Shown one piece after another: positions 14,704 through 63,976 of a stretch of DNA of 64,000 nt. Position 1 is the first letter of the stretch. Every line of letters starts with the position of its first letter. A model generated the notes under the pieces. It searched no databases. It worked only from the letters and a program-made list of their open reading frames with translations, and was not told the origin of the DNA. Source of the DNA: a virus; IMG/VR virus record IMGVR_UViG_3300045988_126785, positions 1 through 64,000 of that record. One strand, 5' to 3'. The translations under genes and the position numbers were made by a program.

Positions 14704-14773
14704 GCAGATGTCCAACCGGTGCTTTTTGTCCTTTCCACCCGGGAGCCGGGGACCTCTCCTGCCGTCTGCACCA
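14704..14773 (+). ncRNA. tRNA-like mini-element U1 (no D arm, non-canonical T loop)
   Basis: Acceptor GCAGATG/CGTCTGC plus A-CCA. It shares both ends and a GGAG-N10-CTCC arm with U2. Confidence 0.3.
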
Positions 14774-14930: not shown

Positions 14931-14993
14931 GCAGACGTCCAAGCCGCGGCCGATCACGCGGGGAGTTGGGGGCATCTCCAACCGTCTGCACCA
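14931..14993 (+). ncRNA. tRNA-like mini-element U2 (63 nt)
   Basis: Acceptor GCAGACG/CGTCTGC plus A-CCA. Central hairpin CCGCG-GCCGATCA-CGCGG. Flush hairpin GTTGG-GGGCATCT-CCAAC. Confidence 0.3.
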
Positions 14994-15184: not shown

Positions 15185-15259
15185 GCAGACGTAGCTCAGT
15201 AGGTTAGAGCACCCCCGAAGTGGGGAACGATGCAGGTTCAAGTCCTGCCGTCTGCACCA
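15185..15259 (+). ncRNA. tRNA-like element U3: canonical D and T arms but a 5-nt anticodon loop
   Basis: GCAGACG TA GCTC-AGTAGGTTA-GAGC A, then CCCCC-GAAGT-GGGGA, then ACGAT, then GCAGG-TTCAAGT-CCTGC, then CGTCTGC A CCA. Confidence 0.45.
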
Positions 15260-57053: not shown

Positions 57054-57436
57054 AGCTTTACCTCCGGCGGCTCCGGTCTTTTTAGCTCAAACTGACTATA
57101 TGGCATAACACACAGCTGCTTGGAATCGCAGTCAGCCATGCCGCTGAAGATGTCCTTGCAATGAGCGCAATACTGGCACATCCACGTCTTTCCGGCTTTT
57201 CTGACATCCGCAATTATCGACATAACATAGTTGCGTTCAAGCATCAGTTGTCTATTCTGCCCCCGCAACTTCTCGATCTCCTGCTGGAGCGCCGCGATGT
57301 GTGCGTTTTGATTCTCCAGCCGGTCAGCGGCTGCAAGCAGGTCTTTCTCCAGCCCTCCCAGCAGATCCATCATGTCCCCATTTTCCCGCCAATCTGCGTG
57401 CTCACGCAGCGCATTTACGAGGTTTGTATCTCTCAT
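57050..57436 (-). CDS. coiled-coil / Cys-rich hypothetical protein
   Basis: Internal start MRDTNLV after a GGGAGGA RBS. Confidence 0.5.
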   Translation of the reverse strand: MRDTNLVNALREHADWRENGDMMDLLGGLEKDLLAAADRLENQNAHIAALQQEIEKLRGQNRQLMLERNYVMSIIADVRKAGKTWMCQYCAHCKDIFSGMADCDSKQLCVMPYSQFELKRPEPPEVKL

Positions 57437-58194
57437 AGTTCCTCCCTTATGTCTCCGCCCCATTGCTCCGCCATGGCTTTGGCGATGCCGGGGAAGGTCT
57501 TGCTTCGGGCTTTTGCCCGTTCCTCCTTACTTCCGCCGCAATCCATTTCCCAACAGGAGTAGCGGACAGTTCCGTTTCTCAGAACCATCTTTCGTCCCTT
57601 AACCGGCTCTACGATGTTTGTTGGCTTCAAGGGGAGTACCCCTCTTTCCCAAAGACAGGTTTTCTTGGTTACGGCGTGTCCAAACTGGAAAGGCTGAACA
57701 ATTTGAGAATACTCAGGTAGACAGAAAATCTTGGATGGAACTGGATTTTCAATAACCACCCTCAGAATATCCGCATCCCAGAAACGCATAAACAAATCTC
57801 GTGCTAAGATACCCTTTTGCACTCGATCAGGCTGCAACTGACCGCCTTTCCAAATGTGCCTTGCCCCGGCGTTTGTCAGGTATGTGCACGGCGGGTGCGC
57901 AATCAGCAAATCCCATTTGCCGACGTCATGCGTCTCCCCGTCCATGGTAGTCACTTGCATCCCCTTGATGGCCTTGAGCGCATCGCCCTGGATATGCCAC
58001 TCAGGATGTCCGCCGGACGGCTCCTGAATGTCACAGGAATATGCCTCATGTCCCAATGCGCGGAACGCCTTACAGACTTCCTGCGATTCCTCGCAAGCTA
58101 TCAACACTTTCATACGTCCTCCAATTCCCCGCCGCAGGCTCATATCCGATGCCGCTTTCAGCCGCTCGATTGCGGTCTGCTCCAAATCGCTCAT
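57433..58194 (-). CDS. divergent C5-methyltransferase-like protein (PPC / ENP motifs)
   Basis: Contains KVLIACEESQEV, LLIAHPPCTYL, VIENPVP and TFPGIAKAMAEQW. An alternative start, MKVLIA at 58113, has a GGAGGA RBS. Confidence 0.5.
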   Translation of the reverse strand: MSDLEQTAIERLKAASDMSLRRGIGGRMKVLIACEESQEVCKAFRALGHEAYSCDIQEPSGGHPEWHIQGDALKAIKGMQVTTMDGETHDVGKWDLLIAHPPCTYLTNAGARHIWKGGQLQPDRVQKGILARDLFMRFWDADILRVVIENPVPSKIFCLPEYSQIVQPFQFGHAVTKKTCLWERGVLPLKPTNIVEPVKGRKMVLRNGTVRYSCWEMDCGGSKEERAKARSKTFPGIAKAMAEQWGGDIREEL

Positions 58195-58771: not shown

Positions 58772-58932
58772 TCTGCCTCCCCTTCCTCGTCCAATTCGTT
58801 GAAATACTGGCTCCCGCAATAGGGACAGCCCACCTTCCGAAACCGCTCAAAAAAGCAGTCCGGTCTCGGCTCCGACCGGTCTAAGATCATCGGCGCTTCA
58901 AACTCCGCACCGCAGGTTTCACAGTGATACAT
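58768..58932 (-). CDS. zinc-ribbon protein (54 aa)
   Basis: Internal start MYHCETCG...CPYCG. Confidence 0.45.
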   Translation of the reverse strand: MYHCETCGAEFEAPMILDRSEPRPDCFFERFRKVGCPYCGSQYFNELDEEGEAE

Positions 58933-59155
58933 GGTGTTTTCCTTTCTCCGGGCGGTAAACATCACCCCGGTTCCACGCTTTTGTGGCGCAGTTCAGGCCG
59001 TGATACGGTCTGGTCCGCGCCCCGCAGGAAGCGCACACCACGGCGAAGTCAAAGGGTGGTGCCGCGTCCTCCATCCGCTCCCCACTGTACATTCCGCACA
59101 GGGCGCACGGTTCCAGTACCCGGTGCTCTCCTGCTCTCCGGTTTCCCCTGTTCAT
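58919..59155 (-). CDS. Lar-like zinc-ribbon protein (78 aa)
   Basis: Internal start MNRGNRR. Contains CALCG...CASCGARTRPY...ATKAWNR. Confidence 0.4.
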   Translation of the reverse strand: MNRGNRRAGEHRVLEPCALCGMYSGERMEDAAPPFDFAVVCASCGARTRPYHGLNCATKAWNRGDVYRPEKGKHHVSL

Positions 59156-59349
59156 GGCGTTCCACCTCCCAGCATGACCTTTGCCAAAAGAACCGCCAGC
59201 AGCAGTAAAAAGCAAATTCCGCCGATCATGGCGGAGGTGTCCGCCCGCTCCCGCCGCCGCTGTTCTCTGGTTTTGCGGTTCTTCTCCGCCCGCCGCCGTT
59301 CAAGTTCCCAGTAGGCTTCCTGTTCCCAATAATCGTTGCCGTGCTTCAT
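59152..59349 (-). CDS. small protein with a basic coil and C-terminal TM helix
   Basis: Internal start MKHGNDYW with an ATGA overlap. Confidence 0.4.
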   Translation of the reverse strand: MKHGNDYWEQEAYWELERRRAEKNRKTREQRRRERADTSAMIGGICFLLLLAVLLAKVMLGGGTP

Positions 59350-61242
59350 GTCCCGCTCCTTTCGTTTCCGCATGGGAACAAAAACCGTCCCATGTCTCCC
59401 GGTTCCTCTACCGTGCCGAACCGACGTTTGGTCACGGCGATTGGGAACTCCTCAATCTCGCTGGCCCATAGGCACGTTCCGCGTCCGTTCAACTGCTCCC
59501 AAATCAGCGGAAAACCGCCTATTCCATCGAACAAACTCGCCATAGTCGCATTTCGCTCGTAGTTGCCGCACAGCCGTTTCAGCAGCCATTTCCACGGCGG
59601 CAGGGCGATGGAGTTGCCCAGTGCCTTATACCGGGGGCTGTCCGCGTCCTTGTGGCGCTTGCCCTTGCTGTCCGTCCACTCGCCCAAGTCGGTCCAGTGG
59701 TCAGGGAAGCCTTGCAGCCGTTCGCACTCCAACGGGGTCAGACGGCGAACCACCATGTTTTGGCGGACCGTATTGTTCAGGTTCAGGCTTTGGCCTTCGC
59801 TTTCCTTTGCCTGCAAGGTTCCGTTGATCTCCCCGCCCTCGGTGAAATTTCGGCAATCTACGCTTGCGACATACGCGGCCATATCTGTTCGGTATGGGTC
59901 ATTGGCTTTTGCTCTTAATGCTGGGGAAATTTCGCTTGATACCACCAGCATATCGTTGTAAGCGTCCTGCCCGTTATAGCTCCCTGCGTGTGCTCCGGGC
60001 GATAAAGTTCCGGTTGTTTTCTGGTACGTCAGTGGAATCTGATTGCCGCCGGTTCCCATACGGGCTTGCAGACTGGGCGCTACCTCGCCGCAGTCCCGGA
60101 TGACGTCGCAGGCGTGGCTCATATCAAGCACGGCGCACGGTACATGGGCATTGGCGTTCAGCGTGTGACATGGTTTCCCGAAGTCAGGAATACTCCCATT
60201 CTGCTTGCTGGTGATCTGCGTAGTATCAAACGCCATGCCCGCTGGCTGGTGCCCATGCTCCTGTGCTCTCAGCGTACCGGCAACATCATGGCTCACACCC
60301 ATCACATTCCCGCCCTGATCGTTCAGGCACATCACCGCCGGTTTATTCCCTCCGCACTCCGCGTTCAGCGTAGGGGCCTGTTTCTCGGCGTATCCGATGC
60401 TCCGGGCCTGTTCGCTGTTCCCCAGCTTAAACCCGGCGCATACAACTGGCTGGTTGTTCCCGCTCATGCCTGCGGAAGCGGTCAAGGTCGGTGCACGGTC
60501 ATCGCTTCGTACCTCGGCCCCGCCTTGCTGAGTTGCCATGCAGAAAAGCGTCTGGTCATTCCCTGCCTTAATCGTTCCGCTTTTCTCCGTCTGGACTAAG
60601 GCTCCTTTTCCGCCTCCGTCGCATCCTCCCCTGATTCGGACTGCGTAAGCAGCACCGCTTTCAGCATCGGCGGAAGGTCTTTCCCCCTCCGCTCCGCTCT
60701 CCGCAGGATACCCTGACACGCTTTTGCGCTCAAACAGTATTTCCCATGCGGTGTCGCCTCCAAAATCTGCGACAAGCGCGATTCTACGGCGACGTTGGGG
60801 GACTCCCCAGTGTTGCGCATCGAGCACTCGCCACGCAACGCTCCATCGTCCTCCCATTTCATCGTGGTATCCCCCCCAGGTGTTCCAACCTTTTTCAGGC
60901 ACTTCAATATCGGGGGCTTCCGGTTCTGCGATGCGGATGGCTTCTTCGAGGACGGCTGCGAAGTCTTTTCCGCCGTTGCTTGAGAAGGCTCCGGGAACAT
61001 TTTCCCAGACCATATACCGAGGTCGCACAAACTCACCTGTTCGCCCCATTCTTCTGTCACGTTCTCTCATCTCCTTGATAATCCGTATTTGCTCCATATA
61101 CAGGCCGGAACGCGCCCCAGCCAGTCCCGCCCGCTTTCCAGCAATGGAAAGATCCTGTCTAACAAGGTGAACCACCTATCACACAATCCACGGGTTCTAC
61201 TTCATTTCCGTGAATTTTTGTGACATCTCCATAATGCTTCAC
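59346..61242 (-). pseudogene. DNA (cytosine-5) methyltransferase, motif-permuted and interrupted at the catalytic PC-Q
   Basis: Frame A runs from GTG 61242 and reads VKHYGDVTKIHGNEVEPVDCVIGGSPC, then TAG (61159-61161). Frame +1 (track ORF) reads QDLSIAGKRAG...ENVPG...QGFP...GNSIALP, then continues in frame into MASLFDGIGGFPL...ASEIEEF (motifs I-II, from 59543). Confidence 0.6.
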
Positions 61243-61632
61243 CTAAATCACCCCCTCTTGCATTTTCAAATAATCGTCTCGTTTTCTTTCCCTCCGCAGT
61301 TTTCGTTTGCACCGACTCAGAAAATCCGCGTCCATGTGCATCTCCCGGCAAATGTCCGCCGGGTCTGTCCGTGCTTCCAGCAGCTCCCGCAGCTTCTGCA
61401 TTTCCGCTTCCCGCAGAAGGGGCGGCCGCCCGCCGCGGCTGGTAGTCCGACCTCCGCCCGCGCAGTTCACGCATTCCGCATAGGGGCAGTGGTTCAGGCA
61501 GTAGTCGATCTGGCTCTGCCGGTCATGGGTGCATATCTCGATCCGGTCTTTCCCGTCCGCGCTGTCCCATGGCAGCACGGCCCGCACGATCACAGTTACG
61601 GTCTCCACCGGGCATATCTCCTTTCCGTTCAT
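61243..61632 (-). CDS. hypothetical Cys-rich protein (129 aa)
   Basis: Internal start MNGKEICP with an ATGA overlap. Confidence 0.5.
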   Translation of the reverse strand: MNGKEICPVETVTVIVRAVLPWDSADGKDRIEICTHDRQSQIDYCLNHCPYAECVNCAGGGRTTSRGGRPPLLREAEMQKLRELLEARTDPADICREMHMDADFLSRCKRKLRRERKRDDYLKMQEGVI

Positions 61633-62150
61633 ACCTCCCGCACGGTGATGTGCTTCATGTCCTGCATCATCTTCACCTTCATGCGGTAGGTCTTGTCTTT
61701 TTTCGTAGAGGGGCCTTTTACGTCCTCCACAACCAAATGCCATGTGCCGTCCTTCCCCCGATCCTCGTAGGAGAAGTCCGCCCGATACGTCACGGCGCGG
61801 CTTCGGTCGCCGTTGGCCGTGATGTAGCTTTCCTTCAGCGTGAATTGGGGTTGGAGCCGCAGGTCCCGGATGGCCCCGGCCTTGCTGAGCAGTACCAGCT
61901 CGTCATACCGTGCTGCCTCCTTGCGGCTGTCGAAGGTGTGCTCCGTTCCGTTGGGCAGGGTTCGGGCGGTGGGGTGGTTGTGGTGCTTGCGCTTACCCTC
62001 CGCCGCCGCTTCCGCCTTTCCCTTCTCCTCCGTCACGAACCGGGCCATCACCCTGGCCGTCCGGTCGATCTGCTGGGCCTGCATCTGCTGCTGTACCTGC
62101 TTCCGGTATCGCTCCGGCAGGCTGTTTAGATCATCCAAACAAACACTCAT
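61629..62150 (-). CDS. DUF1064-type (Holliday-junction resolvase-like) nuclease
   Basis: Contains FDSRKEAARYDELVLL...YRADFSYED...VVEDVKG. Confidence 0.65.
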   Translation of the reverse strand: MSVCLDDLNSLPERYRKQVQQQMQAQQIDRTARVMARFVTEEKGKAEAAAEGKRKHHNHPTARTLPNGTEHTFDSRKEAARYDELVLLSKAGAIRDLRLQPQFTLKESYITANGDRSRAVTYRADFSYEDRGKDGTWHLVVEDVKGPSTKKDKTYRMKVKMMQDMKHITVREV

Positions 62151-62419
62151 CGCTTTTCCTCCTGATACTTCGGGCAGTCCAAAACCTGCACTCGCTCCAC
62201 CAGTCCGTCCCGATCCATGCGGGATCTCCGCCGGACCTTCCAGCCGGGGACGTCCTCAAAGCGGACCTTTCCGCTTTTCTCGTCCACCCGGCTCCATTCA
62301 CACTGCCCATAGGCCAGCTTGCAGGACCAGCACTTGTGCAGACTGTTGGAGGGGTCCTCCTTCTCCGCTTTCGTGCTGTATCTCCGCATACAGCTTGCCA
62401 GCGTAAAATTACCTGCCAT
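62147..62419 (-). CDS. Cys-rich hypothetical protein
   Basis: Track ORF. The start is uncertain (62425, 62419 or 62389). Confidence 0.45.
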   Translation of the reverse strand: MAGNFTLASCMRRYSTKAEKEDPSNSLHKCWSCKLAYGQCEWSRVDEKSGKVRFEDVPGWKVRRRSRMDRDGLVERVQVLDCPKYQEEKR

Positions 62420-63110
62420 CCCCATCGGCCTTTCCCCGGAGATAGGCCATCACCTCATCCCGGCTGCGCCGCTGGGTCCGTACCGCATCCTTGAACCATT
62501 CCGGCGGCTTCACCGCCTCGGCTTCCGGTTTCGCTTCCGCCGCCGGCAGGGGCTTCTTCTCAGGCGCCGCCAGCTTCTCCGGCTCCGGCCCGGTGCCGAT
62601 GCGCTGTACCAGCGCCCGAACCTCCGAAGGCAGGGCGTTGATCTCCCGTTCCCGTGCGGAAATGGCCCGGTAGCTGCGCTGGAAGTTGCTGGACACTACG
62701 CTGTGCACCGTCTCCGTGTCCATCCGCGCCCACTCCCGCAGCGTGTTTGGACTGCCCACGATCCGCTGTACCACCGGCGGGAACTTCTCAAATTCCTCCT
62801 CCGCACCGTACAGCCCGTTTCGGATGGCCCTTGCCACCAGGCCCCATGCCTCGGCCTCCGTCATTTCCGGTTTTGCCGTCAGCAGGCGAAGTTTGGCCTT
62901 TACCTGTCCGATGGTGGGCGGGAAGCCCTTTTCGTCGCTTTCGATCACGCTTTTTACCGCCGCCGCCACCAGCGCCACCTCGTCATGGGCAAACATATCC
63001 GCCCACAGTTTGATGGCGTTGCGCATATCCGGCCCGGTGGTGCTGCTGTAAAACCGGGGATAGGCCGCCGTCAGAATATCCATGATGATGCCCGTCTCCT
63101 GTCTGGTCAT
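62409..63110 (-). CDS. replicative helicase loader/inhibitor-like protein (G39P-type)
   Basis: Internal start MTRQETGIIMDILTAAYPRF...IKLWADMF, with an ATGA overlap to the upstream stop. Confidence 0.55.
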   Translation of the reverse strand: MTRQETGIIMDILTAAYPRFYSSTTGPDMRNAIKLWADMFAHDEVALVAAAVKSVIESDEKGFPPTIGQVKAKLRLLTAKPEMTEAEAWGLVARAIRNGLYGAEEEFEKFPPVVQRIVGSPNTLREWARMDTETVHSVVSSNFQRSYRAISAREREINALPSEVRALVQRIGTGPEPEKLAAPEKKPLPAAEAKPEAEAVKPPEWFKDAVRTQRRSRDEVMAYLRGKADGDGR

Positions 63111-63976
63111 GTTGTGCGGCCCTCCTCCGCGTCCATCTCCGCCGCCAGCTCCGTCCAGCTTTTCCGGGGCTTGTTCGTCCGGGATGCCGCCAGGGCGGGC
63201 TTTCCCTTCCCGCCGTCCCGGCCCTCCCATGTGAGGAACTTCTGCTTCCAGTTCTTCACCGGGTTGCCCTTGCTGTCCCTCCACGAGCGGCCCTGCGCGT
63301 CCGGGGTGTTAAAATACTCAAAAAACCGACGGGGGTCCACCGTGCTCTGCCGGGACGCGGCGTAGGCTTCCACCTCTTCCAGCGTGGGCGGTACGAATTT
63401 CACCGCCGCCCGCTTTCCGCTCTCCGGTGCCTTTGGCTCACTGGGGGCACTGCCCCCCATATCTTCTGAACGTAGTGAAGAAGATATATCTTCTATATCT
63501 ACTTCTCTTTCTTCTTCTGAAACAGCGACAGGTAGCGACTGGTCGGCATGGCGGTCGAGCGATGTGTCAGACGATTTTTCAATCAGCCGCTTTTGGCTTG
63601 CCCGCCGCTTCGCCTGATAAATCCGGTCCCGCTCCTTCTTTTTCTCGTAAGAATCTAACGTCTGGTGCTTCCCCCAGTTCGGGATCGTAATCACATCGTC
63701 TACAATCTCAATCATGTCGAACTGCTCAAAGGTCCGAAGGGCCATCCGTACAAGGCCAATGTCCCGCCGGAAGATGGACGCCAGCATTTCATCCGTGTAC
63801 GCAATGCGGTTGTTCAGAATAAACACGCCGCTGTTGTTCTGCTTCCCGGCCAGCACCAGCAATTTGAACCAGATCACGATGATGCTGTCCGCACTTGGCA
63901 TGGATTCGATCATCAGAACCTTTTCATCGTCAAAAATGTCCGTGGTAATCTTGATCCACTTCACGTCACTTGCCAT
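63107..63976 (-). CDS. phage replisome organizer (DnaD-like N-terminal domain)
   Basis: Begins VKWIKITTDIFDDEKVLMIESMPSADSIIVIWFKLLVLAGKQN. Confidence 0.75.
   Translation of the reverse strand: MASDVKWIKITTDIFDDEKVLMIESMPSADSIIVIWFKLLVLAGKQNNSGVFILNNRIAYTDEMLASIFRRDIGLVRMALRTFEQFDMIEIVDDVITIPNWGKHQTLDSYEKKKERDRIYQAKRRASQKRLIEKSSDTSLDRHADQSLPVAVSEEEREVDIEDISSSLRSEDMGGSAPSEPKAPESGKRAAVKFVPPTLEEVEAYAASRQSTVDPRRFFEYFNTPDAQGRSWRDSKGNPVKNWKQKFLTWEGRDGGKGKPALAASRTNKPRKSWTELAAEMDAEEGRTT

Follow-up and report, generated by a model that had tools for sequence, protein, structure and literature searches.

A predicted Type B circularly permuted C5-cytosine DNA methyltransferase of gut phages with a conserved stop-plus-one-base insert in its catalytic motif

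The window analyzed here is a stretch of 64,000 nt (positions 1 to 64,000) of the IMG/VR record IMGVR_UViG_3300045988_126785, and the subject is a gene on its minus strand for a predicted C5-cytosine DNA methyltransferase. Its reading frame is interrupted by four bases inside the catalytic Pro-Cys-Gln (PCQ) motif, and the coordinates that follow for this gene are all on the minus strand. From the sequence, we read a strong Shine-Dalgarno (SD) sequence, GAGGGGGTGAT (61247..61257), which serves a leader of 27 codons. The TAG at 61243..61245, which ends the upstream open reading frame (ORF; 61243..61743), is in frame with the GTG of the leader and directly abuts it. The leader ORF (61162..61242; GTG and 26 further codons, VKHYGDVTKIHGNEVEPVDCVIGGSPC) carries motif III (GDV) and the first half of motif IV, and it ends at the catalytic Pro-Cys. 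Its last five codons, G-G-S-P-C, constitute a conserved 15-nt element, GGTGGTTCACCTTGT (61162..61176), which is fixed at its synonymous sites and holds an SD-like GGUGGU as well as a UCACCU matching the 16S anti-SD. The 4-nt insert TAGA follows (61158..61161), made up of an in-frame TAG (61161-61159) and an A (61158), and it separates the Cys and Gln codons of PCQ.

The body of the enzyme (59349..61157, the tail of the listed ORF 59346..61175) begins in the +1 frame with CAG 61157 and opens with QDLSIAGKR, the rest of motif IV. Motifs VI and VIII come next, then a long multi-module target-recognition region, motifs IX and X, and finally motifs I-II with a tail of 23 residues. A motif search located ENVPG (motif VI) at 60990-61004, QRRRRIALV (motif VIII) at 60771-60797, RRLTPLECERLQGFP at 59703-59747, and GNSIALP (motif X, GNS) at 59598-59618. 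The relocated N-terminal module (59418..59543) starts at the M of MASLFDGIGGFP (59543), holds FDGIGGFP (motif I, 59508-59531) and WASEIE (motif II, 59451-59468), and ends in KRRF (59418-59429). The reading frame is unbroken from ...NYERNAT into MASLFDGIGGFPL...WASEIEEFPIAVTKRRF and on through the tail. The TGA stop of the body (59346..59348) overlaps the ATG of the next gene (ACATGAAG) in an ATGA coupling; the gene calls in identical loci begin that gene 4 nt before the methyltransferase gene ends. An earlier sequence-only reading had proposed this layout, and both its minus-strand leader, from GTG 61242 right after the upstream TAG to the TAG at 61161-61159, and its continuation in the +1 frame, open from CAG 61157 to the TGA at 59348-59346, proved correct to the base. 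In the sequence as it stands, TAG comes after GGSPC and QDLS is in the +1 frame, so Pro-Cys-Gln would be contiguous in one polypeptide of the window gene only given a frame change. It is contiguous directly in intact relatives, and removal of TAGA restores their GGSPCQDLS, as had been claimed.

The body matches the PF00145 profile with E = 6.7e-26 and 91.9 bits (cut-off 22). The matched profile positions are 46-71 for the leader, 72-129 for the start of the body, 269-319 for the segment at 59562-59870, and 2-43 for the last 71 residues, that is, for the relocated module. The intact relative P0147, 97% identical to the window body, aligned to M.HhaI in the same permuted order: its residues 5-61 correspond to HhaI 59-115, 133-157 to 146-170, 495-515 to 269-289, and 567-609 to 15-55. 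These two alignments confirm the motif order III-X then I-II and the identity of the C-terminal segment as motifs I-II, both of which had been proposed from the letters. Relatives show the same order in single intact ORFs. In L001 (MT835513) the chain is one ORF of 590 residues, MKHLGDITKI...GGSPCQDLS...GNSIALP...MMGSLFDGIGGFPL...KLRFGGE; further examples are P0001, P0041, P0071 and P0102, and a complete permuted ORF is present in 58 of the 61 IMG/VR loci with an unbroken PCQ. The best 120 clusters from a collection of 5.8 billion proteins cover the L001 query from its MKHLGD start onward (93% coverage), and all seven clusters examined at full length end in motifs I-II, UniRef and nr entries from Caudoviricetes among them. 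A second motif I-II was not found in upstream or downstream genes, nor was a separate upstream motif I-II exon, one of the conditions named for refuting the sequence-only reading. On this collective evidence from alignments, the predicted C5-cytosine DNA methyltransferase is a naturally occurring circular permutant with the chain order III-IV-VI-VIII-TRD-IX-X then I-II (TRD, target-recognition domain), in line with the first option of the sequence-only reading. With its N-terminus between motifs II and III, and with motifs I-II behind motif X in the same ORF, it has the arrangement called Type B. An AlphaFold2 model of P0147, built on an alignment of 26 sequences, had a mean pLDDT (predicted local distance difference test) of 26. 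Docking of motifs I-II in the place of strands 1-2 would be backed indirectly, by the activity of engineered equivalents (PMC5944983).

The insert is not an assembly error, a possibility that had been raised for it. Identical leader-TAGA-body sequence was recovered from independent MEGAHIT, SPAdes and Logan assemblies of different samples, and 176 index blocks of the protein collection contain P0194, a body variant close to that of the window. IMG/VR was scanned for GGTGGTTCACCTTGT followed by 0-8 free bases and then CAGGA. At least 118 contigs matched; exactly four bases are inserted in 117 of them, and the sole insert-free one is an unrelated ordinary methyltransferase. A codon-degenerate scan (any G-G-S-P-C codons, TAGN, CAR GAY) gave about 159 matches, about 140 of them with the exact GGTGGTTCACCTTGT. 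Both peculiarities of the gene are thereby found in relatives, the permutation in intact ORFs and TGT-TAG-N-CAR in more than 150 viral contigs of IMG/VR; in the intact relatives TGY and CAR are directly joined. Among 185,579 species genomes, only two metagenome-assembled genomes (MAGs) matched the gene, and the GenBank phage collection held two unannotated records with it. For this reason the host is known only as an uncultured member of the Clostridia/Bacillota.

The surroundings of the insert are conserved in a pattern that differs between its two sides. Leaders of genes with the insert (TAGN genes) were collapsed at 85% nucleotide identity to 21 families, some of which share fewer than half of their leader residues, and synonymous divergence among the families is saturated. 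Codons 23-27 are nonetheless GGT (18/21), GGT (18/21), TCA (19/21), CCT (17/21) and TGT (21/21). By comparison, every synonym occurs across the same families at the invariant Gly codons 5, 12 and 34 (codon 5: GGA 8, GGC 7, GGT 6; codon 12: GGC 8, GGT 5, GGG 4, GGA 4), and insert-free genes use GGC/GGT/GGA, AGC/TCA/TCG, CCG/CCA/CCC/CCT and TGC/TGT at codons 23-27. The codons 3' of the insert (CAG/CAA, GAT/GAC, CTN/TTN and so on) vary freely. The GTG start stands exactly 27 codons upstream of the insert in 92/92 unique TAGN genes. A near-perfect SD sequence (GGAGGTGAT, GGGGGTGAT or GGAGGTGGT) is found 4-6 nt before it in all 21 families, as is a G at position -1, with TAG-GTG the commonest arrangement (12/21). 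The insert itself is TAGA in 72 genes, TAGC in 18, TAGT in 2 and TAGG in none. A and C are weak termination contexts for UAG in E. coli. A broken body accompanies a non-consensus element in 7/8 genes, compared to 34/84 genes with the consensus element. On these comparisons, the TAGA behaves as a selected feature. It is neither an assembly error nor a recent lesion.

Two further codon preferences were seen in the cassette. The His codon 3 of the leader (window 61234-61236) is CAT in 19/20 TAGN families and CAC in 10/11 intact ones, so that a further synonymous site close to the start is fixed, and the Gln codon after the insert is CAA only with TAGC (4/9 families; TAGA 0/10, TAGT 0/2), which may be a lineage effect or part of a signal. 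RNAalifold paired the element with the gene's own SD through 9 pairs, one of them a compensatory column. The duplex energies (mean -14.0 kcal/mol for TAGN genes, -11.6 kcal/mol for intact ones) are not clearly better with the insert, and this long-range pairing may be taken as a lead only. Downstream of the insert, hairpins were predicted in single sequences and none was conserved, the synonymous sites there varying freely; a downstream stimulatory RNA structure was thus not found.

Selection was examined separately in leader and body. In pairwise comparisons among the TAGA-bearing genes of the window's subgroup, the ratio of nonsynonymous to synonymous divergence (dN/dS) of the body is 0.06-0.4 at dS 0.1-0.45 (window and L006: dN 0.009, dS 0.157). 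Comparisons across the two main subgroups give 0.2-0.3, with dS from 0.6 to above 1. L056 (TAGA) and L047 (no insert) share the same phage backbone, with flanks 90-100% identical on both sides; their 81-nt leaders are 65% identical and differ at about 21 codons synonymously and by one amino acid. By these estimates, leader and body are both under purifying selection in the TAGA-bearing genes. That the leader peptide was kept despite about 21 synonymous changes implies that it is needed as protein; carrying motif III and the catalytic Cys, it must therefore end joined to, or assembled with, the body. A recently inactivated gene, the other outcome that the sequence-only reading had allowed, is unsupported as a recent event. 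The insert has been kept together with the upstream 15 nt in 21 diverged leader families, and the purifying selection on both segments also speaks against it.

The bodies have been exchanged between phages, and the leader and insert travel with the backbone. This follows from two observations. In a tree of the 165 codons after the insert, TAGN and intact genes are interleaved, which forces at least four label changes; we read these as recombination of bodies and not as repeated insertion. Identity between the window and L007 is 30-60% upstream of the insert and 91-100% immediately after it. Crossovers upstream of the insert would remove it, and yet none of the 117 relevant contigs with the 15-mer lacks it. 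In L011/G015, of the window's phage type, an intact allele has taken the place of the whole 5' end, and both its codons and its upstream context differ. A further frame break is present in 41/92 unique TAGN genes, compared to 2/46 genes with an intact PCQ. Most of these second breaks are length changes of one poly-G tract, and on that account they are not evidence of random decay; they are single breaks, with the remaining 400-650 codons open. The tract comprises 5-10 G inside ...YAVRIRGGCDGGG..., at the equivalent of window ~60621-60633, and is seen in L002, L121, L129, L142, L144, L173 and others. In these relatives it may be a phase-variation switch or a homopolymer sequencing error. The gene of the window has an interrupted tract (AGGGGAGGA) and no break of frame there. 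The intact-PCQ alleles L038, L042, L043 and L047, on the backbone of TAGA subgroup B, have ATA (or ATT) at the start position and no canonical start after the upstream stop. Such alleles hint at another way of holding expression low, and low expression may be what is selected.

These observations on exchange could also be accommodated by an allele that does not function. An old insertion of 4 nt would have killed the enzyme, the loss being neutral or favored (for example, in escaping methylation-dependent restriction), and the ORF would look healthy by virtue of repeated overwriting by intact genes of co-infecting phages. The interleaving of TAGN and intact genes in the N-domain tree with its forced label changes, the rise in identity from about 60% to 91-100% right after the site, and the excess of second breaks in TAGN genes would all be expected of it, and the same-backbone intact alleles with ATA in place of a canonical start are consistent with a pressure against expression. 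Several observations are left without an account, however. The fixation of five synonymous sites upstream of the stop, the universal GTG, the optimal SD and the absence of G at the fourth base have no place in it. A dead allele should not have preserved the leader peptide near-perfectly over saturated synonymous divergence, nor have yielded 0/117 revertants amid frequent recombination with intact donors. The second breaks, single and clustered at one poly-G tract with hundreds of codons still open, are unlike random decay. We regard this explanation as unlikely, though it deserves to be kept in mind.

Considering these constraints, we propose that UGU-UAG-N is the site of a programmed frame change within a selected cassette, which would throttle synthesis of the enzyme. 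The cassette would consist of a very strong ribosome-binding site (RBS), the GTG, the 27-codon leader, the fixed 15-nt GGUGGUUCACCUUGU, and UAG plus one base. Initiation at GTG 61242 would be efficient, and most ribosomes would terminate at the UAG and release a 27-residue peptide. A minority would change frame by one base at UGU-UAG-A and produce the full-length active enzyme. The joining of Cys to QDLS needs a frame change exactly at UGU-UAG-N, because of the +1-frame TGA and TAG that lie 15 nt upstream. Three routes can be envisaged. In the first, tRNA-Cys would stay in place and the incoming tRNA would bind AGA, AGC or AGU, with PC-R/S-QDLS as the product; the residue inserted would be Arg or Ser because the fourth base varies (A, C, T), and slow termination and the G.U wobble at UGU would both favor this route. 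In the second, a near-cognate tRNA-Gln would read UAG, which is the usual natural misreading of amber, and re-pair on CAG/CAA four bases on, giving the native PCQDLS. The third would be quadruplet reading of UAGN. Candidate junction peptides for the routes are ...GGSPC-R-QDLSIAGK, ...GGSPCQDLSIAGK and ...GGSPCQQDLSIAGK. The PC-R-QD product that the sequence-only reading had foreseen is in these terms one of several outcomes, native PCQD by a tRNA-Gln hop being possible as well. Ribosomes of E. coli stalled at a slowly decoded UAG are known to insert Gln, to shift, or to hop by -3 to +19 nt (PMC6207430). The net effect would be a built-in throttle on the methyltransferase, possibly sensitive to the activity of release factor 1. 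The strong RBS would fit compensation for an inefficient step. Beyond the selection seen on cassette and protein, two features of the locus count for the frame change: an in-frame stop stands directly 3' of the shift codon and is conserved in diverged homologues (21 families, more than 150 contigs), and the stop of the body overlaps the next ATG, as in a translated operon.

A number of points weigh against this proposal. The tRNA-Cys (GCA) on UGU cannot re-pair at GUU, where only a third-position G.U would form, so the codon is not slippery. The SD-like GGUGGU stands 6 nt before UGU, not the 3 nt of a stimulator; its spacing to CCU is 3 nt, and a shift at that codon would leave out the Cys. 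Downstream of the insert, conservation is at the amino-acid level only. A +1 shift would place Arg or Ser inside the invariant PCQ. Recombination of the body with intact genes means that part of its purifying selection may be borrowed from the donors, and the excess of further frame breaks in TAGN genes may mean relaxed selection. Finally, neither a suppressor or quadruplet tRNA (CUA or four-base anticodon) nor a tRNA with an 8-nt loop was found in the 74.9-kb genome of the phage or in 16 tRNA-cluster regions from 13 related phages. Because the site departs from the rules known from prfB, the gene of release factor 2, we hold the programmed frame change at roughly even chances.

The search of the tRNA clusters bears equally on the idea that a special host tRNA, with an expanded anticodon loop or as an amber suppressor, would read UAGN at high efficiency in the natural host. 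In favor of it, the insert never departs from UAG plus a single base, engineered tRNAs are described in PMC4764823 as able to read UAGN quadruplets, and the host is an uncultured organism of the Clostridia/Bacillota. Yet no such tRNA appeared in the phage genome or in the clusters of its 13 relatives, the phage uses TAG as an ordinary stop, with a coding density that is not raised when TAG is treated as sense, and the variable fourth base (A, C, T) implies that one quadruplet anticodon could not serve all lineages. We consider this explanation very improbable. General recoding of TAG in the phage was rejected on similar grounds: large genes end in TAG, and the coding density is 0.899 with table 11 as compared to 0.895 when TAG is read as sense. 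A phase-variation repeat at the break was also discarded, there being no repeat at TGTTAGACAG and four inserted bases in 117 of the at least 118 contigs with the 15-mer, as was transcriptional slippage, the site having no run of identical bases.

The tRNAs of the phage are Gly-CCC, Trp-CCA and Gln-UUG, and between these sits an odd tRNA-like gene (window 15185-15259, plus strand; Rfam tRNA, 55 bits), whose anticodon arm is two bases short and whose CCA is encoded. ARAGORN gave it a 6-nt loop and a two-base 'anticodon'. The gene is kept in L092, L094 and L096 and is not present in all related phages. As a decoder of the insert it was rejected, for L093 and L095 have TAGA and no such tRNA. Its 3' acceptor end, CCGTCTGCACCA, has two extra upstream copies (window ~14741-14768 and ~14963-14990, plus strand), which look like tRNA 3'-end remnants or attachment-site-type repeats.

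The 15-nt element also contains, in the +1 frame, a GTG (G-GTG-GTT, 61175), 14 nt upstream of the UAG, which allows an enzyme of two chains. The 27-residue leader peptide would be released and the ribosome would reinitiate at this GTG, producing a body MVHLVRQDLS... that would assemble non-covalently with the leader and its motif III and catalytic Cys. The +1-frame GTG, which needs GGT as the first Gly codon (18/21 families), is kept wherever the element is consensus, the three families without it have broken bodies, and gene callers already begin the body there. Strong conservation of the leader peptide also counts for it. C5 enzymes in two pieces are known, and in the case of the Type B permutant cp62M.MpeI the fragments are able to complement one another (PMC5944983). 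No family, however, has an SD before this GTG. The split would fall inside the catalytic loop, so that the 27-mer would carry the nucleophilic Cys at its free C-terminus, and we know of no natural or engineered C5 enzyme that is split at the catalytic Cys. Reinitiation also leaves unaccounted for the conservation of the codons after the GTG (GTT CAC CTT GT), and it does not require that the stop stand directly against the Gln codon. The two-chain enzyme is accordingly improbable to our minds, less so than decoding by a host tRNA and more so than a dead allele.

Should the programmed frame change be correct, the signal may be of a kind of its own. We tentatively suggest, with somewhat less than even confidence, that UGU-UAG-N and the GGUGGUUCACCU box fixed upstream of it together constitute a bacterial recoding signal of a new class, in which the frame would change at a non-slippery codon inside a catalytic motif and act as a release-factor-sensing throttle on a Type B methyltransferase in gut phages. 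In this box an SD-like sequence stands beside a copy of the 16S anti-SD, and the box is complementary to the RBS of the gene itself. As a recoding site, UGU-UAG-N would lie outside the known bacterial rules, with no slippery codon and no downstream structure, and would offer a directly testable new case; it would also explain the Cys-less proteins starting MVHLV that gene callers report. Whatever the mode of expression, very diverged genes have retained a stop-plus-one-base insert inside the catalytic Pro-Cys-Gln in a nucleotide context that is fixed, and hundreds of these genes are at present truncated or given wrong starts by annotation pipelines.

The methyltransferase gene lies on the minus strand in the replication module of what the exact 119-bp terminal direct repeat of the 74,855-bp contig (1-119 and 74737-74855) indicates to be a complete phage genome of about 74.7 kb. 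On the same strand, this module holds a replisome organizer (63107-63976), a helicase-loader-like gene (62409-63284) and a Holliday-junction resolvase (61629-62150). It also holds the 65-residue ORF in ATGA overlap with the methyltransferase stop (59152-59349), a Lar-like restriction-alleviation gene (58919-59215; weak PF14354 match in the identical loci L264 and L265), and a second small DNA methyltransferase-like gene of 253 residues (57433-58194; phrog_757, E = 1.9e-57; HPPCTYL and IENP motifs). In the latter, neither a recognizable target-recognition domain nor a Pfam match was found. The module looks like an anti-restriction set. Within the methyltransferase gene, an ORF of 154 codons is nested in an alternative frame (window 60596-61060, minus strand), reading ...SRLSQILEATPHGKYCLSAKACQGILRRAERRGKDLPPMLKAVL... 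and overlapping the main-frame ...QRRRRIALVADFGGDTAWEILFERKSVSG. This frame is also open in L001 and L002, and it has no Pfam match.

Among known recoding systems, the +1 frameshift of prfB is the closest to the proposed frame change. Both have an in-frame stop about 26 codons into the gene, right after the shift codon, an upstream SD-like sequence, a poor stop context, and conservation among homologues that have diverged. They would probably share their logic as well, that of a throttle responding to the activity of a release factor; a UAG stop would be read by release factor 1. The differences are in the mechanics. In prfB the site is CUU-UGA-C, its SD is 3 nt upstream, and UUU is where tRNA-Leu re-pairs, whereas the phage site is UGU-UAG-N, with no re-pairing, an SD-like box 6 nt upstream, and a gene unrelated to termination. 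The split enzymes M.AquI and M.EcoHK31I also distribute the catalytic machinery over two translated ORFs, and M.EcoHK31I nests one ORF in another frame. Their splits fall after motif VIII or supply motif IX and leave both chains sizeable, while the split piece in the phage would be a 27-residue peptide ending at the catalytic Cys. Phase-variable methyltransferases (phasevarions) likewise use a frame break to switch or limit production, and relatives of the phage gene do carry a variable poly-G tract downstream. The TAGA site itself has no repeat, and more than 150 contigs all have an insert of 4 nt, so slipped-strand switching does not apply to it.

With regard to the permutation, natural enzymes of the same fold are also circularly permuted, among them M.BssHII, M.Alw26I, M2.Eco31I, M.Esp3I and M2.BsaI (Type H) and the plant DRM2. 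The natural permuted C5 enzymes are thought to have arisen by tandem duplication and truncation. The break of the M.BssHII type is in the variable region (IX-X before I-VIII) and that of DRM2 is between motifs V and VI; the domains are left whole in both. In the phage enzyme it falls between motifs II and III, inside the half that binds S-adenosylmethionine. Precisely this position was explored by Slaska-Kiss et al. (2018; PMC5944983), who built fourteen permutants of M.MpeI and seven of M.SssI. Activity was by far the highest in their Class/Type B constructs, cp62M.MpeI and cp58M.SssI, whose new N-terminus is placed between motifs II and III. In their REBASE search, every permuted C5 enzyme of natural origin had its break in the variable region, and they reported with surprise that Type B was absent from nature. 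In the library that we searched, no paper on a natural Type B permutant or on a frameshift in a C5 methyltransferase was found. By its motif order, the phage gene family is the natural Type B class that had been reported missing; the arrangement that the one systematic study of permutants found most active yet unused in nature is one that human-gut phages use abundantly. Such a family bears on the evolution of methyltransferases by duplication and truncation, and it would supply ready-made scaffolds for split or permuted methyltransferase tools. The phage enzymes and the engineered Type B permutants share the order III...X-I-II and the same new termini. The latter are laboratory constructs, while the former constitute a large natural family in gut phages, to which a long multi-module recognition region has been added and, in the lineage of the window, the frame break in motif IV.

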